The position numbers and the translations under genes are program-made. DNA of 64,000 bases from Candidatus Limnocylindria bacterium. GTDB lineage: Bacteria > Chloroflexota > Limnocylindria > Limnocylindrales > CSP1-4. Location: NCBI GenBank assembly GCA_046566045.1, contig JBKHXL010000014.1, forward strand, positions 4,917 to 68,916. Reading direction: 5' to 3'. This document shows positions 1-64,000 of this stretch, one piece after another (positions within the stretch are counted from its first letter, which is position 1; each line of letters begins with the position of its first letter). The notes under the pieces were generated by a model. It saw only the letters and a program-made list of their open reading frames with translations, did not search any database and had not been told where the DNA came from.

Positions 1-357
1 AGCGGGGCCACCTGGCTGCTGCCGCGGATCGTCGGGTCCGCCCGGGCGGCCGAGCTGGCGCTCCTCGGCACGACCCTCGACGGACCGGCGGCCCTGGCCG
101 CCGGCCTGGTCAGCCGAGTCGTGCCGGACGAGGATCTCCCCGAGGTCGCGCACGAGCTGGCATCCGCGATGGCCGCGATGGCGCCCCTCGCCGTCGCCGC
201 CACGAAGCGGCTGCTGGTGGACGCCTGGGCGACCGACCTCGACGGCGCGCTCGCCGCGGAGCGAGCGGCGCAGGGCGCGCTCGGGGCCAGCCGGGATCAC
301 GCCGAGGGGCTGGCTGCCTTCCGCGAGAAGCGGCCCCCGCGGTTCGTCGGGGAGTAG
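1..357 (+). CDS. Enoyl-CoA hydratase/isomerase (crotonase family), 5'-truncated by the window edge
   Basis: Frame 1 is open from nt 1. The C-terminal motif reads ...LDGPAALAAGLVSRVVPDEDLPEVAHELASAMAAMAPLAVAATKRLL...EGLAAFREKRPPRF, which is typical of the crotonase C-terminus. Stop at 355-357. Confidence 0.75.
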   Translation, partial: SGATWLLPRIVGSARAAELALLGTTLDGPAALAAGLVSRVVPDEDLPEVAHELASAMAAMAPLAVAATKRLLVDAWATDLDGALAAERAAQGALGASRDHAEGLAAFREKRPPRFVGE

Positions 358-358
358 C

Positions 359-2167
359 TCAGGGGACGACGACCGTGGCCACGTCCGTGTGCGCCACCAG
401 CCGCTTGCCGGCCCAGGTGCCGAGCAGGATCTCGAGGCGGGCGTAGTACGTGCCGCCGGCCAGGCCCTCGAGCGTGGCCGTGGCGGCCGACGGCGAGTCC
501 GACGCCCAGACGGCCGACGCTCCCTCGAGGTAGCTCGGGGTCGTGTCGTCCTGCGCCAGGACGAGCTTGGCGAAGCTGAAGCACGCGGCCGGGCCACCGT
601 ACGGCAGCCAGTCGAGGACGACCGTGCCCGCCTCCTCGGTCCACTCGAGGGCGCCGAGCGCCTGCACGTCCTCGACCTCGGCCGTCGTCACGGCACTCGC
701 CGCGTAGGCCTGGTCGCCGCTCGTGAACGCGACGGCTCGCCAGGCGTACGTCGTCCCCGGCGCGAGGTCGACGTCGATGGCGCGCAGGATCGCCCGGTCG
801 GTGGCGTACAGCCCGTCCGGCGCGACGGCCGGGGCGACGGGCGGGTAGACCGGCGCGATCGAGCTCGAGGTCGAGCGCAGGCCCTGGTAGTGGTCGAAGC
901 CCTCCGCCGGGGCCTTCGTCCAGTCCAGCACGGCCGTCCCGCCCGGGCAGGCCGTGACGGTCAGGCCGAGGCTCGCGAGGGCGGGCGTCGGCGACGCCGT
1001 CGGCGCCGGTGTCGGGGCGGGGGTCGGCTTGGCGGTCGGGCGGGGCGTGGCCGTCGGCGACGCCGTCGGCGTGGCCGTCGGCGTGGGACTCGCGACCGGA
1101 TCGGTCGGCGGGGCGGGCGACGGATGGTCGGGCGTCGGCGCGAGCGACGGGGTGGCCGCCGGGCGAGGCGTCGCGGCCGGCGTCGCGGCGGGTGTGGGAT
1201 CGGGCTCGTCGAGGGCCGCCGTCAGGATCCCGAGGCCGAACCCCAGCACCCGGTCCCGCCGGCCGTTCCAACGCAGCCACGGGTCGTCGAGATCGGTCAC
1301 GGTCGCGTCGGCCAGCTCGCCGACCAGCGGCGCGCCACGGGAGAGCGTGACGAGCGCGACCTGGCCCTCCCGCATGAGGACGGCCAGGGCCGGCCCGTCG
1401 ATCGAGACGTCGTGTTCGATGCCGATCGCCCGAACGGTCTCGCCGCCCGTCGGGCCGGCGCGGCGGTCCAGGTCGAACGCCGTGCCGGTCGCGGTCCACG
1501 TGACGTCGGCGGTCCGCACCACGTAGCGCTCGACCGGCTCGGCCACCCGGTGCCAGGCACGTCCGGCACGCTGGTCGAGCTGCACCAGCCCACGGTCCAC
1601 GCCGTCGAGGCGGACGTCCGTGCCGCCGGCCAGGCGCGTCTCGCCGCCGGCCAGGGCCAGGGTCGCGGACCCGCGCGGGCCGGTCACGATACGGTCACCG
1701 GCGTGGAGCGTCACCCCCGCCGCCAGCGCGGACGCCGCGCCGTCGCGGACCAGGGTGGCATCGGTCGCGCCGATCACGCCGGCCTCGACCGGCCCCCCGT
1801 GGAGCCAGCGGCCGTCCAGGCCGAGCATGGCGACCACCACCACGGCCGCGAGTGCGGCGACCGACCAGCGCGGCAGGCCGACCGACAGGGGCGCACGGCG
1901 GACGACCCGCGGCCGGACGCGATCGAGCACGGGTGCCGCGCCGCTGCCGGGCGTCGTCGCGGGCATGGCGGCGAGCGCGCCACCGCTCGCGGGCGCCGCC
2001 CCGACGAGGCGGCTGCGCAGGTCCGCGGCGAACGTCGGCGAGGGCTGCGTGTCGCTCGCCCGAGCCCGGGCCCGGGCGCCGGCAGCCGCGAGGGCCGCCG
2101 CGAGGTCGGCGACGCCCGGCTCCAGGTCGTCGGGGAAGGGCACGATGCGCTCGTCGTCAGGCCACAT
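359..2167 (-). CDS. Anti-sigma factor: single TM helix, Pro/Thr-rich linker and two FN3/Ig-like extracytoplasmic domains
   Basis: ATG at 2167-2165 overlaps the stop of the upstream ECF sigma gene (ATGTGGCCTGA). It has a cytoplasmic N-terminus and a TM segment (WSVAALAAVVVVAMLGL). A PT-rich low-complexity stretch lies at about nt 1009-1234. The C-terminal domains (TVTACPGG...LDW...FDHYQGLRS...APGTTYAWRAVAF) are paralogous to the product of 2860..3975. The 690-aa ORF-track N-terminal extension is rejected. Confidence 0.7.
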   Translation of the reverse strand: MWPDDERIVPFPDDLEPGVADLAAALAAAGARARARASDTQPSPTFAADLRSRLVGAAPASGGALAAMPATTPGSGAAPVLDRVRPRVVRRAPLSVGLPRWSVAALAAVVVVAMLGLDGRWLHGGPVEAGVIGATDATLVRDGAASALAAGVTLHAGDRIVTGPRGSATLALAGGETRLAGGTDVRLDGVDRGLVQLDQRAGRAWHRVAEPVERYVVRTADVTWTATGTAFDLDRRAGPTGGETVRAIGIEHDVSIDGPALAVLMREGQVALVTLSRGAPLVGELADATVTDLDDPWLRWNGRRDRVLGFGLGILTAALDEPDPTPAATPAATPRPAATPSLAPTPDHPSPAPPTDPVASPTPTATPTASPTATPRPTAKPTPAPTPAPTASPTPALASLGLTVTACPGGTAVLDWTKAPAEGFDHYQGLRSTSSSIAPVYPPVAPAVAPDGLYATDRAILRAIDVDLAPGTTYAWRAVAFTSGDQAYAASAVTTAEVEDVQALGALEWTEEAGTVVLDWLPYGGPAACFSFAKLVLAQDDTTPSYLEGASAVWASDSPSAATATLEGLAGGTYYARLEILLGTWAGKRLVAHTDVATVVVP

Positions 2168-2765
2168 CGGTCGCCTCCCGTTCGATGATGGCGCGGAGCG
2201 CTCGCAGGGCCCGGTGATGACGCACGGCAAGGGTCGCCGGGCTGCACCCCAGGACGGTGCACTGTTCGTCGGTGGTGAGGCCGTCGAGATAGCGCAGGAC
2301 GAGGACCCGCCGCTGCGGTTCGGGCAGGGCAGCGAGGGCCCGAGCCAGCTCGTCGCGGTCGAGGGCGGTCGCCAGCGCGCGCGCCGCGCGTTCGTCGCCG
2401 ATGGTCGTCTCCGGCCCGTCGTCCGGCCCACCGTCGGTGGCGCGCCGCCCGAGCGGGATGGTCCGTCGGCTGCGCCTGACGTGGTCGATCACGGCATGAC
2501 CGGCGACGCGGTACAGCCAGCCCCCGAACGATTCGTTGCGGAAGTCCTCCCGGCGGACGGCCGACAGGGCGCGCTCGAAGGTCACGGCCGTGAGGTCCTC
2601 GGCGGTCGCGCGGTCGCCGACGCGACGGGCGATGTAGCCGTGGATGCGGGGCAGGTAGAAGTCGTACAGCTCCCCGAACGCGGACGCATCGACCCGGGCG
2701 CGGGCCACGAGGGCTCGCTCCCGGGTCGCGTCCAGGCGATGATCGGAGCTCGCATCACGGGACAT
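2157..2765 (-). CDS. ECF (sigma-70 family, group IV) RNA polymerase sigma factor
   Basis: 202 aa with sigma-70 regions 2 and 4 (FGELYDFYLPRIHGYIARRV ... LPEPQRRVLVLRYLDGLTTDEQCTVLGCSPATLAVRHHRA). Its stop overlaps the anti-sigma start. Confidence 0.9.
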   Translation of the reverse strand: MSRDASSDHRLDATRERALVARARVDASAFGELYDFYLPRIHGYIARRVGDRATAEDLTAVTFERALSAVRREDFRNESFGGWLYRVAGHAVIDHVRRSRRTIPLGRRATDGGPDDGPETTIGDERAARALATALDRDELARALAALPEPQRRVLVLRYLDGLTTDEQCTVLGCSPATLAVRHHRALRALRAIIEREATDVA

Positions 2766-2859
2766 GGAGGGCCCGATCGTGCGGGTGGCGGCCCGGCCCG
2801 GCCATCGGCCAGCAGTACCGCCTCCCGCCCATCGCGCGTGGGACCCTACGTCGCGTCCG

Positions 2860-3975
2860 CTACTCGACCGTGACGCCGGTCCAGGACGTGGTCCCGAGCA
2901 GGACCCACGAGCCGGACACCTGGCCCTTGGCCTCGACGAGGTAGTGGTAGGTCACCCCGACCTCCACGTCGTCGTCCACGAAGGCCGTCGTCCCGGCGTC
3001 CTCGATCTCGGCGCGCAGGCTGGCCGAACCGTCCACCTTGCGCAGGATCCGGTAGTGGCTGAAGCCCTCGCTGCCGAACGGCTCCCAGGCGACGGTCACG
3101 ACGCCGGCCTCGGAGCCCGCCTCGATCCACATGGCGTACGGCGTGGGCGCCGGCGTCTTCGTCGGCGCGGGCTCGTCCGGCGCCTCGAGCGACTTCGTGG
3201 CGGTCGCCGCCAGGACCTTGTAGCCGTCGTCCGTGCCGCGCACGCAGAACACGCGATACCAGGCGGTCGTGCCGGCGGGGGCGTGCTCGTCCCAGGCCTT
3301 GGTCGCCCCGCCCACCTCGGTCACGGCCACGACCTCGTCGCCGCCGCCGGTCGGCCACGACACGGTCTTGTCCGTCGAGCGCACGACCTTGTAGTAGTCG
3401 CCGCCGTCCGCCGGGCAACCGCTCCAGTCGATGAACACGGCGCCTTCCTTGTTGGCGAGGGTCAGGCTCATGACCGGCTTCTCGGTCGGCTTGGCGGTGG
3501 GCTTGGGGGTGGCGTCCGGCTTCTCGGTCGGCTTGGCGGTCGGCTTGGGGGTGGCGTCCGGCTTCTCGGTCGGCGTGGCGGTCGGCTTGGGCGTCGCGTC
3601 CGGCTCCTCGTCCGTCTCTGCCGGCTTCGCGGTGGGCGCGGTGGTGGGCGTCTTGGTCGGATCGGCAACCGAGGTCGGCTCGGCCTTCGCCGTCTCGTCT
3701 GCCACGTCGCTGGCGTCCGGCGCTTCGAAAGCGACGAAGGTCGGTGTCGGCTCGGCGTCGCCCTGGCTGCCGGCGAGGCCAAGATTCGCCCCGAGGGCGA
3801 TCGCGCCCATGAGCAGCGCGCCACCGATGGCGCCCGGCACGGACAGCCCAAGGCGTGGCGCCGGTCGCGGCGCGCGCGGCCGCGGGCCCGTCCGCTCGGT
3901 CAGCGGCTGCGTCCAATCGAAGCCATCGGCGCCCGCGCCGTCGAGCTCGTCCATGTCGTCCGGTTCGTATCCCAT
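2860..3975 (-). CDS. Membrane-anchored protein with a Pro/Thr/Lys-rich tandem-repeat linker and two FN3-like domains; paralog of the anti-sigma sensor domain
   Basis: TM helix (LGLSVPGAIGGALLMGAIALGANLGLAG). A 14-aa repeat (ATPKPTAKPTEKPD) occurs three times. The two C-terminal domains show the same W/C/Y pattern as the anti-sigma C-terminus. It sits 94 bp upstream of the sigma gene on the same strand. Confidence 0.75.
   Translation of the reverse strand: MGYEPDDMDELDGAGADGFDWTQPLTERTGPRPRAPRPAPRLGLSVPGAIGGALLMGAIALGANLGLAGSQGDAEPTPTFVAFEAPDASDVADETAKAEPTSVADPTKTPTTAPTAKPAETDEEPDATPKPTATPTEKPDATPKPTAKPTEKPDATPKPTAKPTEKPVMSLTLANKEGAVFIDWSGCPADGGDYYKVVRSTDKTVSWPTGGGDEVVAVTEVGGATKAWDEHAPAGTTAWYRVFCVRGTDDGYKVLAATATKSLEAPDEPAPTKTPAPTPYAMWIEAGSEAGVVTVAWEPFGSEGFSHYRILRKVDGSASLRAEIEDAGTTAFVDDDVEVGVTYHYLVEAKGQVSGSWVLLGTTSWTGVTVE
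3480..3615 (-). repeat. Three tandem copies of a ~42-bp in-frame repeat encoding (A/E)TPKPT(A/T)(K/T)PTEKPD
   Basis: The DNA shows ctcggtcggcttggcggt(g/c)ggcttggg(g/c)gtggcgtccggctt three times. Its translation on the minus strand is the repeated linker. Confidence 0.8.
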
Positions 3976-4205
3976 GGTCAGTCCCTCCCGAGACCTGTGT
4001 GTCGGCCGCCGGATGGATGACGGTGGCGGCCGGATGATTCCGACCCCTCCACAACGTCCGAGGGCGCGGATCCCTTACCGCGGCGCGACCATCCGATGGT
4101 CCGGGCTACACGCTGGGACCCCCGGCCCATCCACGGGAGCAGACCGGGCGAAGGGGAGACATCAGCCCTTCCGAACGACGGCCACCTGCCAGGAGACGCA
4201 CGACC

Positions 4206-5063
4206 ATGACGTCCATCGCCGCCGACGCCGGTGAACGCGAGCCCGCCCCCGGGCCCGGCTCCATCCCAGCCGACAAGAGCCGCTCCCTCCGCCGATGGAA
4301 CCGCTTCCTGACCCTGGCCCATGGCCTGCAGTTCGTGGCCATGATCGCGATCTCCCGGACCACGGCCGTGTTCGAGCCGACCGTCCCGACCGTCCGTCCG
4401 ATCATCGAGGACGGGCAGTTCACCGGGGTCGAGCCGTCGAGCGTCATGCTCTTCTCCATCCCGCTCGCGTACGTCATCGCCTCGTTCTTCTTGATGAGCG
4501 CGATCGCCCACGCCTCCGCCGGGTGGTTCCTGCGCAGCAGGTACGAGGCCTGGCTGGCTCGCGGCATGAATCCCCTGCGCTGGGTCGAGTACGCGTTCTC
4601 TTCCACCGTGATGATCGTGGCCATCGCCTACATCAGCTACATCACGGACTTCCCCGCGCTCATCGCCATCGCGGGCGCCAACGTCGCGATGAACCTGTTC
4701 GGATGGAGCATGGAAGCGGCCAACGAGGGTCGTCTGGAGGCCGGCCAGCGCATCGATTGGAAGCACTTCATCTTCGGGTGCATCGCCGGGATCGCGCCGT
4801 GGATCGGGATCTTCTCCATCATCTGGGCGTACTCCGCCCAGGAGGGCCTGCCCGCCGACGCGGGGATCCCGGCGTTCGTGTACGTGATCATCGCCAGCCT
4901 GTTCGTCGCCTTCAACGTCTTCGCGATCACGATGGTGCTGCAGTACCGCCGGGTCGGCCGCTGGCGCGAGTACCTCTACGGTGAGAAGACCTACATGGTC
5001 CTGAGCCTGGTCGCGAAGTCGCTCCTCGCCTGGCAGGTCTGGTCGGGCACGCTGCGGCCGTAG
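4206..5063 (+). CDS. Heliorhodopsin (microbial rhodopsin with inverted topology)
   Basis: 285 aa with 7 TM helices. It is strongly similar to characterised heliorhodopsin 48C12 across TM3 (RWVEYAFSSTVMIVAIAY, conserved Glu counterion), TM6 (FGCIAGIAPWIGIF) and TM7, where the retinal Schiff-base Lys lies in YMVLSLVAKSLLAWQVWSGTLRP. ATG at 4206. Confidence 0.85.
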   Translation: MTSIAADAGEREPAPGPGSIPADKSRSLRRWNRFLTLAHGLQFVAMIAISRTTAVFEPTVPTVRPIIEDGQFTGVEPSSVMLFSIPLAYVIASFFLMSAIAHASAGWFLRSRYEAWLARGMNPLRWVEYAFSSTVMIVAIAYISYITDFPALIAIAGANVAMNLFGWSMEAANEGRLEAGQRIDWKHFIFGCIAGIAPWIGIFSIIWAYSAQEGLPADAGIPAFVYVIIASLFVAFNVFAITMVLQYRRVGRWREYLYGEKTYMVLSLVAKSLLAWQVWSGTLRP

Positions 5064-5224
5064 GCTCCTGCCGGACGCGACGCCTGTCCTGCCACGCCTC
5101 GCTGCGCCGCGGTCGCGAGCCGTTGACCCTTGCCCTCGGCGGCGCGACGGAGTAGCCTCCCGTCCCAACGAGCGAACGTTCGTTAGGGTGCTGGACAGCA
5201 CGGCCCGGGGAGGATCAATCGAGC

Positions 5225-5824
5225 GTGGTCGAGACCGCCCGCCGGCGCGAGATCGAGGACGCTGCGAGCGTCCTGTTCCGGGAGCGCGGCTATGCCGCGA
5301 CGAGCGTCCGTGACATCGCGCGCGCCCTCGACATCCAGGGCGCCAGCCTGTACGCCCACGTGACCTCCAAGCAGGAAGTGCTGTGGTCGATCGTGGACGG
5401 CACGGCGACGCGCTTCGAGGCGGCCGCGCAGCACGCCCTGGCCCAGCACGCCGAGCCCAGAGACCGACTGGCCGCGCTCGTGCGCGGGCACGTGGCGGTG
5501 CTGCTCGACGACATCGGCCGCGCCAGCGTCTTCATCCACGACTGGCGATCGCTCGACGCCGAGCGCCGCGCGACCATCCTGCGCCGCCGGGACGCCTACG
5601 AGCGGCACGTCCGCGAGGTCATCGAGGCGGGCGTGGCGGCGGGGCGATTCGAGGTCGCGGACCCTGGCGTCGCGGCCGCGTTCATCCTGACCGCGCTCAA
5701 CGGCATCGTGGTGTGGTACCGCCCCGACGGCCGGCTCGACGCCGCCGGGCTCCAGGACGTCTTCGCCGACCTGGCGCTGCGGGCCGTGGGGGCCGGGCGC
5801 GACGATCGACCGGGCGCGGCATGA
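5225..5824 (+). CDS. TetR/AcrR family transcriptional regulator, likely a PaaR-type regulator of the downstream paa operon
   Basis: N-terminal TetR HTH (ASVLFRERGYAATSVRDIARALDIQGASLYAHV). GTG start with GGGAGGA about 10 nt upstream. Its stop overlaps the paaA start (ATGA). Confidence 0.8.
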   Translation: MVETARRREIEDAASVLFRERGYAATSVRDIARALDIQGASLYAHVTSKQEVLWSIVDGTATRFEAAAQHALAQHAEPRDRLAALVRGHVAVLLDDIGRASVFIHDWRSLDAERRATILRRRDAYERHVREVIEAGVAAGRFEVADPGVAAAFILTALNGIVVWYRPDGRLDAAGLQDVFADLALRAVGAGRDDRPGAA

Positions 5825-6822
5825 CCGATCCGCTTGCCCTCGATCCCATCCTCGCCCCGGCCGAGCGGGTCGGCGCCGGGGCGCCCGCGCCGGCGCGCGC
5901 CGACGGCGAGGCCGAGGCGGCCTGGTCCGACCGCTTCGAGGCGCACGTCATGAGCGGCGGGAAGGTGGAAGCCACCGACGCCATGCCCGACGCCTATCGC
6001 TCGGCGGTCCTGCGCTTCGTCGAGATGCACGCCAACTCCGAGCTGATGGGCGTCCTGCCCGAGCGAGAGTGGCTCATGCGCGCGCCGACCCTGCGCCGCA
6101 AGCTGGCCCTCACGGCCAAGGTCCAGGACGAGGTCGGCCACGCCCAGCTGCTGTACCGGGTGGCCGAGGACCTCGGCAAGCCGCGCGAGGCGATGTTCGA
6201 CGACCTGCTCGCCGGCCGGACCAAGTTCCACAACGTGTTCCACTACCCGACCCGGACCTGGGCGGACGTCGGGATCATCGCCTGGCTGGTGGACGCGGCG
6301 GCGATCGTCGCCCAGCAGGCCCTGCGCGACAGCAGCTACGCGCCGTACGCCCGGACCATGCAGAAGATCTGCTGGGAGGAATCGGTCCACATCATGCACG
6401 GCCGCGACATCGTGGTGACCCTGGCGACGGGCACCGCGCGACAGCGCGCCGACGTGCAGGACGCGCTCGAGCGGTGGTGGGGCCCCCTGATGCAGATGCA
6501 CGGCCCGCGCTCGCCCCGCGAACGGGACACGGACCTGCGCTGGCGGATCAAGGCGAAGACGTCCGAGGAACTCCGCCAGGAGTTCCTGACCATCTACGTG
6601 CCGCGCATCCGCGAGCTGGGCCTGGTCATCCCCGACGGCGAGCTCGCGCTCGACGAGGCGACCGGGACGTGGCGCTACCGAGAGCCGGACTGGAACGAGC
6701 TGCGCGCCGTGGTCACGAACCGCGGCCCGATGTCCGAGTCTCGCCTCGCCTTCCGACGCCTGGCCCGGGAGGAGTCCGCGTGGGTCCGGGCGGCGCTGCT
6801 CGGCGCGTCGGTCGCGGCATGA
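5821..6822 (+). CDS. paaA: 1,2-phenylacetyl-CoA epoxidase subunit A
   Basis: Ferritin-like di-iron oxygenase fold. Motifs FVEMHANSELMG, QDEVGHAQLLY and WEESVHIMHGRD are present. ATG at 5821 overlaps the TetR stop. Confidence 0.9.
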   Translation: MTDPLALDPILAPAERVGAGAPAPARADGEAEAAWSDRFEAHVMSGGKVEATDAMPDAYRSAVLRFVEMHANSELMGVLPEREWLMRAPTLRRKLALTAKVQDEVGHAQLLYRVAEDLGKPREAMFDDLLAGRTKFHNVFHYPTRTWADVGIIAWLVDAAAIVAQQALRDSSYAPYARTMQKICWEESVHIMHGRDIVVTLATGTARQRADVQDALERWWGPLMQMHGPRSPRERDTDLRWRIKAKTSEELRQEFLTIYVPRIRELGLVIPDGELALDEATGTWRYREPDWNELRAVVTNRGPMSESRLAFRRLAREESAWVRAALLGASVAA

Positions 6823-7154
6823 CCGAGCCGATCGTCCCCGGACCGAGGCTGGAGCCGTGGGAGGTCTTCCGGCGCGAGAAGGAGGGCGACGCGATGCGCC
6901 ACGGGGGGAGCGTCATGGCGCCGGATGCCGAGCTCGCCCTGCACTACGCCCGCGAACTGTTCGGTCGACGTCAGGAGAGCGTCCGGCTGTGGGTCGTCCG
7001 CCGGGCGGACATCCTGGACCTCGACGACCCGGACCTGCTCCAGCCGCCGCTCGACCGGTCGTTCAAGAAGCCCGGCGGGTACGTCATGCGCGACAAGCTC
7101 GCCGCGGCGCGGTCGCAGGCCGGCCAGGCCAGGCCGCGCCCTCGCCCGCGATGA
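6819..7154 (+). CDS. paaB: 1,2-phenylacetyl-CoA epoxidase subunit B
   Basis: 111 aa with the typical PaaB size and sequence (EPWEVFRREKEGDAMRHGGSVMAPDAELALHYARELF). ATGA overlap with paaA. Confidence 0.85.
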   Translation: MTEPIVPGPRLEPWEVFRREKEGDAMRHGGSVMAPDAELALHYARELFGRRQESVRLWVVRRADILDLDDPDLLQPPLDRSFKKPGGYVMRDKLAAARSQAGQARPRPRPR

Positions 7155-7930
7155 CCGCCGCCGTCCCGACGGCGCTCGCACCCGCGCTTGTCGCGCCGGT
7201 CGCGGAGCTGCTCCTGGCCATGGCCGACGACGAGGCGATCCTCGGCTGGACCGACTCCGAGTGGACCGGCATCGCGCCGCTGCTCGAGGAGGACGTGGCC
7301 ATGAGCTCGCTGTCGCAGGACGAGCTGGGGCACGCCGCCGCGCTGTACGACCTGCTCGCCGGGCTCATCGGCGGTGACCGCGACGCGCTGGCCTACGACC
7401 GGGCTCCGGCCGACTACCGCCACGCTCGGCTGCTCGACCACGGCCGAGGTGACTGGGCCATGACCATCGCGCGGCGCTTCCTGTACGAGTCGGCGGACGC
7501 CGTCCGGCTCGAGGCGCTGGTCGCGGGGAGCTGGGCGCCACTGGCCGAGCTCGCGCGCGCGATCGCCCGCGAGGAGCGCTATCACCGGATGCACGTCGAC
7601 ACGTGGTTCGAGCGCCTCGCACGAGCGGAGGGCGAGCCGCGCGAACGGCTCCTGGCCGCGCTCGCGATCCTGGCCCCGGATGCGGCCACGGTGTTGGCGC
7701 CGCTCGATGGGGAGGCGGCCCTCGTCTCGGCGGGCATCCTGGCCGCCCCGCTGGGCGAGCTCGAGGCGCGCTGGCGCGCCCTCGTCGAGCCCGTGCTGCG
7801 CCGGCTGGACCTGCCCGTGCCGGCCGCCCGTGCCGCGGCGCGCGGTCGGACCGAGCACGGCCCCGCCTTCCTCGCGCTGCATGACGCGTTCACCAGCGTC
7901 CGGCATGCCGACCCTGGGGCGACGTGGTGA
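7151..7930 (+). CDS. paaC: 1,2-phenylacetyl-CoA epoxidase subunit C
   Basis: 259 aa, ferritin-like, PaaC-type (DDEAILGWTDSEWTGIAPLLEEDVAMSSLSQDELGHAAALYDLL). ATGA overlap with paaB. Confidence 0.85.
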   Translation: MTAAVPTALAPALVAPVAELLLAMADDEAILGWTDSEWTGIAPLLEEDVAMSSLSQDELGHAAALYDLLAGLIGGDRDALAYDRAPADYRHARLLDHGRGDWAMTIARRFLYESADAVRLEALVAGSWAPLAELARAIAREERYHRMHVDTWFERLARAEGEPRERLLAALAILAPDAATVLAPLDGEAALVSAGILAAPLGELEARWRALVEPVLRRLDLPVPAARAAARGRTEHGPAFLALHDAFTSVRHADPGATW

Positions 7931-8403
7931 CGGCCGCGAGCGGCGTCGCGCCGGCGACCGAGGCGGACGTCCGGGCGATCCTCGCCGGTGTCATGGATCC
8001 CGAGCTGCCGGTCGTGTCGATCGCTGACCTCGGCATGGTCGGGCTGGTCGTGGTCACGCCCGCGGCGATCCAGGTCGACGTGCTGCCGACCTTCCTCGGC
8101 TGCCCGGCCATCGAGGTCATCCTCGACGCGGTCCGGACGTCGCTGGCGCCGCTCGACGTGCCGGTCGTCGCCCGGGTCAGTCACGCGACCCCGTGGACCT
8201 CGGATCGGATCAGCGAGGCGGGGCGGCACGCCCTCGCCTCGGCCGGCATCGCTCCACCGACCGACGCGCCGGATCCGGCCTGCCCCTGGTGCGACTCGGA
8301 CCGGACGGTCCGGGACAGCGCCTTCGGTCCGACCCAGTGCCGCTCGCTCCATTACTGCCGCGCCTGCCGCCAGCCGTTCGAAGCGTTCCGAACGCTGCGA
8401 TGA
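7924..8403 (+). CDS. paaD: Phenylacetate-CoA oxygenase subunit PaaD
   Basis: 159 aa. N-terminal MIP18/SUF-like domain ([24 protein letters not shown]) and C-terminal Cys cluster (CPWC...CRAC). GTGGTGA overlap with the paaC stop. Confidence 0.8.
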
Positions 8404-9451
8404 CCCGGGTCGTCGGGATCGTCGGGGCCGGGCGCATGGGCACCGGGATCGCCCAGGTCGTGGTCGAGGCGGGCGACCGCGTCCGCATCCACGACGCGTC
8501 GCCAGCCGCCGTCGACGCGGCGCTCGAGCGGGTGCGCGACGGCCTCGCCCGGCGCGCCGACGGGCGCCACCCGACGACGGGGCCGGACTGGATCGCGGAG
8601 CGGATGGACCGCATCGCGACGGCCGCGACGCCGGCGGCGCTGGCGCGGGAAGCCGACCTGGTCATCGAGGCGGTGGTCGAGGATCTCGACGTGAAGCGCG
8701 AGCTCTTCCATGCGCTCGACGCGGCGGCGGCCCCCGACGCGATCCTGGCGACCAACACGAGCGCCCTGCGCGTGCACGACATCGCGGCCGCGACGGCCTC
8801 GCCGGAGCGGGTGATCGGCCTGCACTGGTTCAATCCGCCGACGCGCATGGCGCTGGTCGAGGTCATCGCCGCGGAGCGGACGAGCGCGGAGGTGGTGGGC
8901 CGCGCCATCGCCGCGGTCACGGCCTGGGGCCGGACCCCGGTGCGCAGCGCGGACACCCCGGGGTTCATCGTCAACCGGGTCAATCGCCCGTTCACGATCG
9001 AGGCGCTTCGCCTGCTCGAGGCGCGGATCGCCGACGTCCCGACCATCGACGCCGCGCTGCGCGGCGCCGGGTTCCCGATGGGCCCGTTCGAGCTGATGGA
9101 CCTGACCGGCATCGACATCAGCCTGGCCGCGGCCCGCGGCGTGTGGGAGGGGCTCGGTCGGCCCGAGCACCTGCGGCCATCGCCCATCCAGGAAGGGCTC
9201 GTGGCTGCCGGGCGGCTGGGGCGCTCGACCGGCGAGGGGTTCTACCGCTACGTCGAGGGACGACGCGGCGAGCCGGCCGAGGGCTTCGCGTTCACGCTGC
9301 CGACCGTGCCCGACCCGGCCTCGATCGCCGCCTGCATCGTGGGCGCCATCGACGCCGAGGCGGCCCGCGCCGCCGCAGCCGGTGTCGCCAGCCGCGACGA
9401 CATCGAGCTCGCGCTGCGCCTCGGGGCGGGCCACCCGGTACGATCGACGCC

Positions 9452-9455
<4 letters not shown>
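8400..9455 (+). CDS. paaH: 3-hydroxyacyl-CoA (3-hydroxyadipyl-CoA) dehydrogenase
   Basis: NAD-binding [15 protein letters not shown] and the HFFNP-like motif [15 protein letters not shown] overlaps on both sides. It sits where paaE is normally found. Confidence 0.85.
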
Positions 9456-10684
<1,229 letters not shown>

Positions 10685-10742
10685 TAGGACACGACCCTGA
10701 TCTCAGGCCTGCGTCGTTTGCGCGGCTCGAAGGTGCGAGATC

Positions 10743-61945: not shown

Positions 61946-62089
61946 GCGATCCCTCCGCGGCGTCGTGTGGCGTCCAGTCTACGGCGGGCGGGCAGGGACC
62001 CGACGGGTCGACCGGGCCGGGTGTAATCGCCGGCGCCGCTCGTCGTTGTCAGGGGCGAACGACCTCCTCCTGCCTGAGGGATACCTGCC

Positions 62090-63082
62090 ATGCGACGATC
62101 GATCCGACCCTTGGCCGCGACGGCCGCCCTGCTGCTCGCCCTGTCGGTGCCCGCGACGGCTCTCGGCCAGGCCGGCGCCGCGGCACGACCCTCCGACGAG
62201 CCGGGCACCACCGTCGCCATCGGGCGGACGGCCCATGCCGGCGCCAAGCTGGCGCGCCTCGCCATCGCCCACGCGAGGCTGGCGGCGCACCGCCCGGCGG
62301 CGCTCGGCGCCGCGCTCCCGGCCGGCCTGACCGACCCGGCGCCCGCCGTCCCGATCGTCGCTCCGGCGGCATCGACGACGCCGGCCGCCGACGCGCGCCC
62401 CGCGGTCTCGATCACCCTGGGCTGCACCGTCGTGCGCCGCGACGGCGCGGCCTCCGACAGCCTGCTCGGGCCCGAGTACCGCGTCGCGGTCGCCTGTCGC
62501 TGGTCCAGGCCCGAGGACGCTCGCGTGCGCGCCTACAAGCTGTGGCGGATCAAGGACGGCGGGACACGCACGCTGATCGCGGTCGTGCCGGCCAGCCAGC
62601 CGCTGCGCTACCTCGACACGCGCGTCTCCTTCGGCCATCGCTACACCTACGCGGTCGTCGGCGTGAAGGCGAACGGCGTGGCCGTCGCGGTCAGCAAGCC
62701 GGTCACGGTCAGGCTCCCGCCCGGCGCGGAGACGATCCGCCTCGGCTGCGCGCTCGGCGCCGTCGACGACAAGCGCGGCGTCATCTGCGCGTGGTCCGAG
62801 GCGCGGCACCCGGCCGCTGCCGGATACGTCCTGTGGCGGTCCGTCGACGGCGGCGCGCGACAGGCCGTCCATCGAACCGGCCTGGACGGGCGGCGCGCCT
62901 TCCTCGACACCGATGTGCGTCGCGGCCAGGTCATCCGCTACGCCGTCGTCGTGGTGGACGAGGCCGGCCACCCGGTCGGTCTCGGCGGTCCGGTCGTCGT
63001 CCGGATCCCCTCGCCCGAGCCGCTGCCGGCCGCGACCGGTGACCCGGCCCCGACCGGCGCTCCCGCCGAGCCCACCCCGTAG
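62090..63082 (+). CDS. Secreted protein with two FN3/Ig-like domains (same domain family as 2860..3975 and the anti-sigma C-terminus)
   Basis: Signal peptide MRRSIRPLAATAALLLALSVPATALG. Two repeats each carry C...C/W/Y-x-Y patterns (ITLGCTVV...YKLWRI...YTYAVVGV and IRLGCALG...YVLWRS...IRYAVVVV). RBS GAGGGA upstream. It lies 6 bp upstream of the ECF sigma gene. Confidence 0.7.
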   Translation: MRRSIRPLAATAALLLALSVPATALGQAGAAARPSDEPGTTVAIGRTAHAGAKLARLAIAHARLAAHRPAALGAALPAGLTDPAPAVPIVAPAASTTPAADARPAVSITLGCTVVRRDGAASDSLLGPEYRVAVACRWSRPEDARVRAYKLWRIKDGGTRTLIAVVPASQPLRYLDTRVSFGHRYTYAVVGVKANGVAVAVSKPVTVRLPPGAETIRLGCALGAVDDKRGVICAWSEARHPAAAGYVLWRSVDGGARQAVHRTGLDGRRAFLDTDVRRGQVIRYAVVVVDEAGHPVGLGGPVVVRIPSPEPLPAATGDPAPTGAPAEPTP

Positions 63083-63088
63083 GCGGGC

Positions 63089-63703
63089 GTGCCGGGCGAC
63101 GGTCGCAGCGAGGCCGTCACACTGGAGCCAGTGGATCGTGAGCACGAGGCTGAGCGCGACGAGCGGACGCTGGTCGAACGCGCCCGGACCGACGCGGAGG
63201 CGTTCGCCGAGCTGTACCGGCGGTACCTCCCGCGCGTCCACGCCTTCGCCTATCGACGGACCGGGTCGGTCGAGGTCGCCGAGGACGTCACGGCGGCCTC
63301 GTTCGAGCGAGCGTGGCGCAGCCTCGGCTCGTTCTCGTGGCGGGCCGGCGGCTTCGGCCCGTGGCTCTTCCGGATCGTCTCGAACGAGCTGGTGGACCAC
63401 TACCGCCGCACGGCCCGGGCCGGATCGGACCGCGCCCGCGGCGCCGCAGCCGCGCTCCACCCCGGCGGTCCGGGCGACCCGGGCGAGGCGCTCGACGAGC
63501 GCGAGTCCACGGCGGAGGTCCTGGCCGCGATGAGCACGCTCAGCCCGCGCTACCAGCGCGCCCTGTCGCTGCGCTACCTGTCCGGCCTGACGCTCGACGA
63601 AGCGGCGGCCGCGATGGGGACGTCCCGGGCGACGATGGCGGTCATCGTCCACCGGGCGACGCGCGCCCTGCGGCGCGCCCTCAGCATGGAGGCGCCGCGA
63701 TGA
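63089..63703 (+). CDS. ECF (group IV) RNA polymerase sigma factor
   Basis: Region 2 (DAEAFAELYRRYLPRVHAFAYRRTG) and region 4 (LSPRYQRALSLRYLSGLTLDEAAAAMGTSRATMAVIVHRA). The start codon is non-ATG. Confidence 0.85.
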   Translation: MPGDGRSEAVTLEPVDREHEAERDERTLVERARTDAEAFAELYRRYLPRVHAFAYRRTGSVEVAEDVTAASFERAWRSLGSFSWRAGGFGPWLFRIVSNELVDHYRRTARAGSDRARGAAAALHPGGPGDPGEALDERESTAEVLAAMSTLSPRYQRALSLRYLSGLTLDEAAAAMGTSRATMAVIVHRATRALRRALSMEAPR

Positions 63704-64000
63704 GCGACGAGGTCCGCCGGCGGCTGGAGGCGGCCGGCGAGCGGCCGGCCCCGGCGCCCCGACCGGCGTTCGCCGCGGCGCTCGAGGAGCGCCTCGCGGC
63801 GCTCGCGGCCGATCCTCGGCCGGCCGCACCGTCCGCACCGTCCACGCCCCTCCGGCGATGGCCCGTGCTGCGGCCGGCGCTCGCGATCGCGGCGGCCGTG
63901 GTCGTGCTCGTGGTGGCGTCGCTCGGCGTCGGCCTCCGGCAGCCGGCCTACGCGTTCGAGCTCAGCGCGGCGTCCGGCGTCGAGGTCGAACTGGTCGACG
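63700..64000 (+). CDS. Anti-sigma factor, 3'-truncated by the window edge
   Basis: ATGA overlap with the sigma stop. Short cytoplasmic N-terminus, then the TM segment VLRPALAIAAAVVVLVVASLGVGL. The remainder is missing. Confidence 0.65.
   Translation, partial: MSDEVRRRLEAAGERPAPAPRPAFAAALEERLAALAADPRPAAPSAPSTPLRRWPVLRPALAIAAAVVVLVVASLGVGLRQPAYAFELSAASGVEVELVD

Follow-up and report, generated by a model that had tools for sequence, protein, structure and literature searches.

The 64,000-nucleotide stretch of contig JBKHXL010000014.1 from Candidatus Limnocylindria bacterium that we analysed (hereafter the window, to which coordinates and counts refer) carries on its minus strand a head-to-tail module of three genes, designated A, sigma and B as the first, second and third gene. 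A encodes a protein with a tandem of FN3 domains, sigma an extracytoplasmic function (ECF) sigma factor, and B a presumed anti-sigma factor that combines a FecR-type domain with an FN3 tandem paralogous to that of A. We propose that they form an autoregulated ECF operon, P1-A-[P2]-sigma-B, acting as a single-membrane version of the cell-surface signalling known from the Fec and Pup systems. Taken as a whole, this reading is on balance the probable one; three of its parts, the operon, the FecR-type assignment of B and the ECF-type promoter ahead of A, are well supported and can be held with considerable confidence.

The genes and coordinates of this module (FN3-tandem protein, ECF sigma factor, anti-sigma factor) had been given correctly in an initial annotation of the window, and only the start of B had to be refined. 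Its open reading frame was listed as 359..2431, and the best start is the ATG at 2167, with GGGAGG seven bases upstream. This ATG overlaps the stop codon of sigma (ATGTGGCCTGA), so that B is translationally coupled to sigma. The G+C content of the region is approximately 75%.

The sigma factor and its candidate promoter P1

The second gene belongs to the ECF (group 4) sigma-70 factors, as it contains only the sigma-2 and sigma-4 regions and matches the curated ECF models: Sigma70_r2 (9.9e-16), Sigma70_r4_2 (1.2e-14) and Sigma70_ECF (1.6e-10) in Pfam and the sigma70-ECF model TIGR02937 in NCBIfam (90 bits for a cutoff of 42.9). All scores against the specific NCBIfam subfamilies were under their cutoffs, the best being the BldN family TIGR02952 with 100 bits (cutoff 206.45). 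The protein is not FecI-like (23% identity with E. coli FecI, E 0.001).

A GTAA...CGTT pair with the spacing found here is the layout typical of ECF promoters. The motif ahead of A, which we call P1, has the family forms GTAA(T/G)-N16/17-CGTT(C/G)TG, with the consensus GGTAATCC-N14/15-CGTTCTG, and was present in all 49 loci with enough upstream sequence among the related loci described below. The window contains a single match, where 0 were expected, and the 2.33 Mb covered by 80 loci contain 53 occurrences, all of them in modules: 49 before A, 2 before extra A-type genes and 2 upstream of sigma in loci that lack A (L037, where the motif is directly upstream of sigma, and L071). ECF sigma factors usually autoregulate and are encoded together with their regulators and targets, which is the basis of promoter prediction for this group (PMC7826278). 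From this habit and from the confinement of the motif to modules, we infer that P1 is the target promoter of sigma and A the first gene of an autoregulated operon. Standing behind an ECF-type promoter, A would belong to what the system produces and could at most feed back on it, which does not suit an independent co-sensor acting upstream.

A conserved box upstream of the P1 -35 element is seen as GGACCATCGG(A/C)TG in most of the regions upstream of A. The leader of A (3990..4045, minus strand) contains another box, TCGGA(A/C)TCATC(C)GGCCG. Behind it come a short GC hairpin (GGCCGCC...GGCGGCC) and then GGGAG as a strong ribosome-binding site, and these are kept in most loci.

Conservation of gene order and variants of the module

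Using B as seed, a genome scan with annotation by hidden Markov models (HMMs) collected 80 loci, nearly all from Chloroflexota or Limnocylindrales metagenome-assembled genomes, of which about 75 could be evaluated for A. Sigma is directly upstream of B wherever the sequence allows, and an A-type gene is directly upstream of sigma in approximately 56 of the 75 evaluable loci. The converse scan, of metagenomes with A as seed, yielded 68 loci; an ECF sigma gene comes next in all 51 that have more than 365 bp (about 400) of downstream sequence, and B follows sigma, with no exceptions, wherever enough sequence remains. In the sampled loci A is never found apart from sigma-B, while sigma-B does occur without an adjacent A. 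A search for this gene order around orthologous sigma/anti-sigma pairs had been suggested in the initial annotation, and it places the partner A beside around three quarters of the B-seeded pairs and beside all evaluable A-seeded ones. The module appears to be specific to Limnocylindria-type Chloroflexota and its order A-sigma-B is conserved.

Several loci depart from the plain three-gene form. A variant of A of approximately 460 aa has three FN3 domains, and in two loci a further A-type gene comes after B (L062:9475-10860 and L076:9593-10900), giving the layout A-sigma-B-A; each of these extra genes carries its own P1 motif (at 9547 in L062 and at 9589 in L076). In L154, an A-type gene with a P1 motif and a sigma gene are followed by a short B without FecR domain (P0198) and then by a lipoprotein gene (L154:5189-5995), the product of which has the lipobox LVAGC, a Pro/Thr linker and an FN3 tandem of the B type (225 bits with the B-family HMM). 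We count these further free-standing FN3 tandems in favour of the reading proposed above.

Paralogous FN3 tandems in A and B

The C-terminal regions of A and B (204 and 206 residues, Pro/Thr linkers removed) align in BLASTP with an E-value of 1e-7 and 27% identity over 146 aa, and the comparison of the two family profiles by hhalign, built from 43 homologues each, covers both domains (probability 99.9%, E 3.7e-35, 225 columns). AlphaFold models computed with the same family alignments contain two beta-sandwiches per protein with a predicted local distance difference test (pLDDT) score >90, and the best PDB matches of both models are tandem FN3 pairs, among them those of NCAM, Robo, contactin and neogenin (E 1e-7 to 1e-8 in Foldseek). 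As modelled, A and B thus both carry seven-strand FN3 beta-sandwiches in tandem. The domain-by-domain alignment claimed in the initial annotation is borne out by BLASTP, hhalign and the models alike, and its three motif pairs all fall inside the alignments; the similarity of the two C-terminal regions, the absence of which had been named beforehand as the outcome that would speak against the claim, is strong. The precomputed match to Pfam PF25833 (Fn3_SaeA_3rd), described as 'faint', was not reproduced by hmmscan and was not used.

Over the families, A and B share a mean identity of about 25%, with 25.5% for cognate and 24.3% for non-cognate pairs, a difference of 1.2 points. This low identity with no meaningful cognate excess points to an old duplication, the two types having been kept apart since.

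The N-terminal tail of A is variable and not conserved (family alignment A2). By contrast with this tail, the hydrophobic segment that follows has S45, P47, A49, G52, L55, A60, F61, G62 and A63 at at least 90% in the 43-homologue alignment, and it contains the AxA motif A58-I59-A60. The segment may serve as a signal-anchor, or else as a signal peptide that is removed by cleavage after A58-I59-A60; the membrane tethering of A that the initial annotation had assumed is thus one of two possibilities.

A FecR-type domain next to the membrane in B

The extracytoplasmic part of B had been described as a linker and two FN3 domains only. The FN3 domains and the Pro/Thr linker stand, but they do not make up the whole region, as residues ~125-320 form a FecR/PupR-type domain. 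Between the transmembrane helix and the stalk, AlphaFold confidently models a beta-rich domain followed by helices. The Pfam FecR model matches the B of the window weakly (E 0.0024) and 27 of the 43 members of the B family, with 4.8e-7 at best, and B carries the periplasmic FecR (PF04773)/CJM fold beside the membrane. No STN domain was found in B, the C-terminus of which consists of the Pro/Thr linker, 43-84 aa long across loci, and the two FN3 domains. B has no Pfam match to the RsgI family at E-values up to 1, and its partner sigma factor is of the ECF type. A PDB sequence search with the B profile returned matches to the low-complexity linker only and was discarded.

Conservation in the B family peaks at W[TV]AxGTAFD, in which T229 is invariant and G228 is present at at least 90%. 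The B-family HMM places this Gly-Thr pair in register with ALG181-T182EF of E. coli FecR, and hhalign gives the same register. In FecR, G181-T182 has been mapped experimentally as the autocleavage site (PMC12036975).

The N-terminus of B has two conserved helix-like segments, L..L.AEL.AAG.RAR and FAA.LR.RLL (alignment A1). Its presumed anti-sigma role is suggested by its position and by the translational coupling to sigma.

Covariation of the two FN3 tandems

In a mirror-tree test on the pairwise divergences of 48 non-redundant loci, the divergence of the A FN3 domains correlates with that of the B FN3 domains (r 0.64) more closely than with that of the FecR domain of B (0.49) or of sigma (0.44). 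The partial correlation between the two tandems is 0.53 when sigma is controlled and 0.47 when the FecR domain is controlled (permutation p<2e-4), whereas controlling for the B FN3 domains leaves no residual between A and the FecR domain (-0.03) or sigma (-0.09). Gene conversion between A and B, considered as a source of this covariation, was rejected, since the cognate excess in identity is so small.

The covariation is suggestive and favours a functional coupling of the two tandems; a common ligand would be expected to give the same signal as contact. A direct coupling of A and B through their FN3 tandems is conceivable, though we would stop short of calling it probable. Tentative, and somewhat doubtful as it stands, is the fuller proposal that the tandems bind each other or one shared ligand at the surface and so form a relay in a single-membrane bacterium, in which the sigma-induced A would control the autocleaved B. 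The initial annotation had seen in A a co-sensor or decoy acting by homotypic contact. Genomic linkage and co-evolution speak for the coupling that it supposed; an independent upstream co-sensor finds no such backing, as A appears to be an output and a quarter of the lineages do without it at the locus.

The spacer between A and sigma

The sequence in front of sigma, in the window and in the equivalent spacers of L002-L081, has a fixed order of elements: a GTAC palindrome, the box T(G/T)G.. and, after a spacer of 17 nt, the box yAnnnT, which precedes the ATG by exactly 10 nt. In the spacer alignment T59, A83 and T87 are invariant, and the boxes and the GTAC element are also found in loci without A. 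This arrangement, P2, fits a -35/-10 promoter, perhaps with an operator, that would give an almost leaderless sigma-B mRNA. An ECF promoter was considered for the same boxes and rejected, as approximately 23 nt lie between the end of the conserved box and CGTC, more than an ECF -35 element allows (spacings derived by hand); in counts of the box geometry, TGGnCn and yAnnnT separated by 17 nt are the better fit.

The P2 -35 element lies between the arms of an inverted repeat, the sequence of which varies, and most loci are predicted to fold into a long hairpin here (median z-score -2.3, with 31 of 55 loci below -2). It was judged from per-sequence folds, z-scores and a comparison of cognate with non-cognate arms instead of alignment folding: RNAalifold on a MAFFT alignment of the spacer gave 4 pairs only and a column-pair scan only 4-bp runs, the arms not being in register. 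The arms co-vary, as cognate arms pair at -40.1 and non-cognate arms at -33.2 kcal/mol (permutation p<1e-4). In RNA that reads through from P1, the hairpin could be a terminator or a processing site and so determine how much A is made relative to sigma-B. The spacer element, taken by itself, may be a cis-regulatory RNA, a leader or processing site with that same effect, and not a promoter, a serious possibility to which we nevertheless give less than even weight. The long hairpin, the better pairing of cognate arms and the small 3' hairpin that takes in the sigma start codon in clade-1 loci all agree with it. On the other side, the fixed 17-nt and 10-nt spacings with their invariant T, A and T fit a -35/-10 promoter, and the boxes persist both in the loci without A and in a distant clade in which no stable hairpin is predicted (z about 0); the few RNAalifold pairs and an Rfam search of positions 1..6000 of the window, which returned no relevant match, including for this spacer, do not help the RNA reading either.

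Features of the locus, a second module and neighbouring genes

The features of the module, and those of a second, reduced module at 62.0-64.0 kb, are collected in Table 1.

Table 1. Coordinates of the A-sigma-B module and of the reduced second module in the window
Feature	Position	Strand	Remark or basis
Conserved box GGACCATCGGATGG	4089..4102	-	~10 nt upstream of P1 -35; possibly a regulator site
P1, candidate ECF-type promoter, GTAAG-N17-CGTTGTG	4050..4078	-	75-103 nt before ATG of A
Shine-Dalgarno of A, GGGAGGG	3983..3989	-	read from sequence; GGGAG kept in related loci
Gene A	2860..3975	-	371 aa
A, conserved hydrophobic segment, residues ~43-68	3772..3849	-	family alignment
A, Pro/Thr/Lys-rich linker	3475..3771	-	sequence
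A, tandem of two FN3 domains, residues 168-371	2863..3474	-	AlphaFold model, Foldseek
A-sigma intergenic region	2766..2859	-	GTAC palindrome, P2, inverted repeat
GTAC palindrome GGCGGTACTGCTGG	2809..2822	-	family form GCrGTACyGC
Putative P2 -35, TGGCCG	2799..2804	-	17 nt before -10
Putative P2 -10, CACGAT	2776..2781	-	10 nt before sigma ATG
ECF sigma	2157..2765	-	202 aa; without Shine-Dalgarno
Anti-sigma B	359..2167	-	602 aa; ATG at 2167
B residues 1-99, cytoplasmic N-terminus, presumed anti-sigma domain	1871..2167	-	position
B residues 100-117, transmembrane helix RWSVAALAAVVVVAMLGL	1817..1870	-	basic residues on N-side
B residues 125-320, FecR/PupR-type juxtamembrane (CJM) domain, then helices	1208..1795	-	Pfam FecR, AlphaFold
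B Gly228-Thr229, candidate autoproteolysis site	1481..1486	-	conservation, FecR register
B residues 321-395, Pro/Thr-rich disordered stalk	983..1207	-	pLDDT <50
B residues 396-602, tandem FN3, paralogous to that of A	362..982	-	alignment, AlphaFold, Foldseek
P1-like motif GTAAT-N16-CGTT	62023..62047	+	relaxed pattern: 2 window matches, 0.06 expected
A', two FN3-like domains	62090..63082	+	330 aa; A-family HMM E 7e-10
sigma', ECF paralogue of sigma	63089..63703	+	204 aa; phmmer 117 bits, E 9e-38; Pfam
B' start, cut at window end	63700..64000	+	full gene L151:3197-4213

The first gene of the second module, A', has an apparent signal peptide, judged by eye, and is probably secreted; as only 6 nt separate A' from sigma', the two are plainly co-transcribed. 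The full B' of 338 aa, taken from L151, has a B-like N-terminus, a transmembrane helix, a short beta region, a Pro/Ser linker and one FN3 domain, which matches the first FN3 domain of the B family in hhalign (97.4%, E 1.2e-11), and it contains no FecR domain. BLASTP between A' and B' was not significant (E 0.034). The P1-like motif ahead of A' and sigma' is counted in favour of the proposed operon reading.

Divergently from A, a heliorhodopsin gene (4206..5063, plus strand; Pfam PF18761, E 5.6e-79) shares with it a 230-bp intergenic region that holds P1. As a part of the module it was ruled out, phmmer giving a match within 8 kb in 0 of the 80 related loci, and in L001 a PAS-HisKA-REC hybrid histidine kinase occupies its slot. 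The module is further adjoined by a plus-strand block at 5225..10700 with a TetR regulator gene followed by paaABCD-like genes and genes for a 3-hydroxyacyl-CoA dehydrogenase and a thiolase. This TetR-paa block is syntenic in L001 and stands beside sigma in loci without A, where TetR is divergent from sigma and the GTAC boxes consequently fall in the TetR-sigma spacer.

A proposed mechanism and its alternatives

In the proposed mechanism, the N-terminus of B would sequester sigma, and B would cleave itself at G228/T229 as FecR does. Its C-terminal fragment, composed of the stalk and the FN3 domains, would stay bound and shield the membrane stub until an event at the cell-surface FN3 tandem strips it from B; the stub would then be degraded by regulated intramembrane proteolysis and sigma released. 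Free sigma would transcribe from P1, producing more A and, by read-through, more sigma and B. A may finally engage the FN3 tandem of B, or the same surface ligand, as a feedback partner, comparable to FecA and PupB with the C-terminal domains of FecR and PupR, and this is the least certain step.

The precedent for such a chain is FecR, for which autocleavage, shielding of the stub by the C-terminal fragment, and its signal-driven removal leading to proteolysis, active FecI and expression of the fec transport genes have been described (PMC12036975). In PupR, the periplasmic domain is composed of a CJM and a C-terminal STN subdomain, the STN fold being shared with the signalling domain of PupB, and both subdomains are required for binding that domain (PMC7186176). 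The Fec and Pup systems (FecI-FecR-FecA and PupI-PupR-PupB) resemble our module in having an ECF sigma factor, a single-pass anti-sigma factor or sigma regulator and a partner; in the sharing of a fold between the C-terminal domain of the anti-sigma factor and a domain of the partner (STN domains in those systems, FN3 domains in ours); and in a partner gene behind an ECF-type promoter, as fecA is FecI-dependent. The module differs from them in several respects: it has neither TonB-dependent transducer nor STN domain and carries a Pro/Thr stalk with two FN3 domains instead, the partner gene, located upstream within the same operon, specifies a small FN3 protein on a stalk, sigma is not FecI-like, and the N-terminus of B is not FecR_N. 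No TonB-dependent transducer was found near the module in the window or in L001, where the neighbours are the heliorhodopsin or histidine kinase, TetR and paa genes. Chloroflexota have, to our knowledge, no outer membrane, and the host is presumed to share the single-membrane organisation of its phylum. The module would thus work like a cell-surface signalling system without being a canonical FecIRA member, as a FecR-type variant.

Other systems share single traits with it. In RsgI/sigma-I of Clostridium thermocellum and Bacillus subtilis, the anti-sigma factor is reported to combine an autoproteolytic domain beside the membrane with a disordered linker and a sensor at the C-terminus that is homologous to modules of regulon proteins (PMC10328401, PMC9732909), and the system is similar in its monoderm host and in this succession of domains. 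It differs in that sigma-I is not an ECF factor, the periplasmic domain is of another family and the operon has no partner gene; the sensors described are carbohydrate-binding modules or a disordered region and not FN3 tandems. CnrYXH and RseA/RseB also have a co-encoded third extracytoplasmic protein that modulates the anti-sigma factor, but the folds of CnrX and RseB are unrelated to that of the anti-sigma partner, with no domain paralogy and no FecR domain. The sigma-BldN/RsbN pair of Streptomyces consists of an ECF sigma factor and a membrane anti-sigma factor that control cell-surface proteins. TIGR02952 links our sigma to it as the best subfamily, yet at 100 bits for a cutoff of 206; RsbN has no FecR or FN3 domains, and our sigma shows no evident N-terminal pro-sequence. 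Literature searches combining ECF or anti-sigma factors with Chloroflexi, FecR and fibronectin/Fn3 returned no description of the layout, and neither Chloroflexi nor fibronectin is mentioned in the main text of the paper that reclassified the ECF factors. This agrees with the view of the initial annotation that the architecture is not a described one, with the qualification that the module is a variant of the FecR type and not unrelated to it.

Several observations weigh against the proposed mechanism. In 19 of the approximately 75 evaluable loci no A is next to sigma and the FN3 domains of B are about equally conserved, so that an adjacent A is not obligatory for the function of B; seven of these loci (L041, L043, L045, L047, L053, L058 and L066) retain the TetR-paa neighbours of the window and are for this reason orthologous loci without A. 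Short B variants (approximately 380 aa) and B' have no FecR domain, and together with the A-less loci they indicate that neither A nor autocleavage is essential to the family as a whole. Residues 1-99 of B gave no Pfam match at E-values up to 1, whether to families of anti-sigma domains or to FecR_N. The hhalign comparison of E. coli FecR with the B family is not significant (probability 0.6%, E 0.099), and for that reason autocleavage of B is only presumed, the equivalence of the Gly-Thr pairs depending on this weak alignment and on the similarity in fold. The partial Mantel tests behind the covariation of A and B are liberal for sequences related by descent, and the stalk lengths of A and B do not covary (Spearman 0.13, confounded by the A variants with three FN3 domains). 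The hairpin and P2 may, moreover, uncouple the expression of A from that of sigma-B.

The same facts invite a different account of A, in which it is purely an output, a surface FN3 protein of adhesin, wall or sheath type, while the FN3 domains of B sense an unrelated cue from the envelope or the environment and the paralogy is a historical by-product of local duplication and domain shuffling, A and B neither touching nor having a ligand in common. The ECF-type promoter before A agrees well with this, as do the similar constraint on the B FN3 domains where A is missing, the old divergence of the tandems with no meaningful cognate excess and the uncorrelated stalks; by analogy, sigma-BldN, to the family of which our sigma comes closest, controls surface sheath proteins. 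It accounts less well for the invariable presence of sigma after A in the 51 evaluable A-seeded loci, for a divergence of the A tandem that tracks the B tandem specifically and neither sigma nor the FecR domain, and for the variants that add free-standing FN3 tandems of both types, which go beyond a single accident of duplication, and we regard it as rather unlikely. A could also act upstream of sigma, as a constitutive co-anti-sigma factor or protector that, like RseB or an unliganded TonB-dependent transducer, binds the ectodomain of B and blocks its site-1 cleavage until it is displaced by a signal. Transducers of cell-surface signalling are reported to protect the anti-sigma factor from proteolysis (PMC11637429), and the tight genomic linkage, the rate covariation and the strongly conserved hydrophobic segment of A, which would fit helix-helix packing in the membrane, are compatible with such a role. 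With an ECF-type promoter, however, little A would be expected before induction, save for leakiness of P1 or its recognition by another sigma factor, loci without A exist, and A may not remain in the membrane; we consider a protector improbable. The reading that we retain is the autoregulated operon with A as a sigma-induced partner or feedback element.

Significance

FecR-type signalling is understood almost wholly as an outer-membrane process powered by TonB, and the module keeps the FecR domain with its Gly-Thr pair in a phylum without outer membrane. If the proposed reading is true, release by autocleavage as in FecR would be transferable to further sensor modules and types of envelope, and a sensor domain homologous to a domain of its partner would be a recurring principle in the design of anti-sigma factors. 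The three genes would also make a compact system for tests in heterologous hosts, with GTAAT-N16/17-CGTTCTG as its sharply defined promoter. If, beyond this, the tandems of A and B bind each other or one ligand, an FN3:FN3 contact would replace the STN:STN contact of the Gram-negative systems, with a built-in feedback, and the transmembrane-anchored, lipid-anchored and secreted FN3 tandems of both types would make up a combinatorial family of partners across Limnocylindria. For an abundant and uncultured lineage of freshwater and soil, the analysis supplies predicted regulatory sites.

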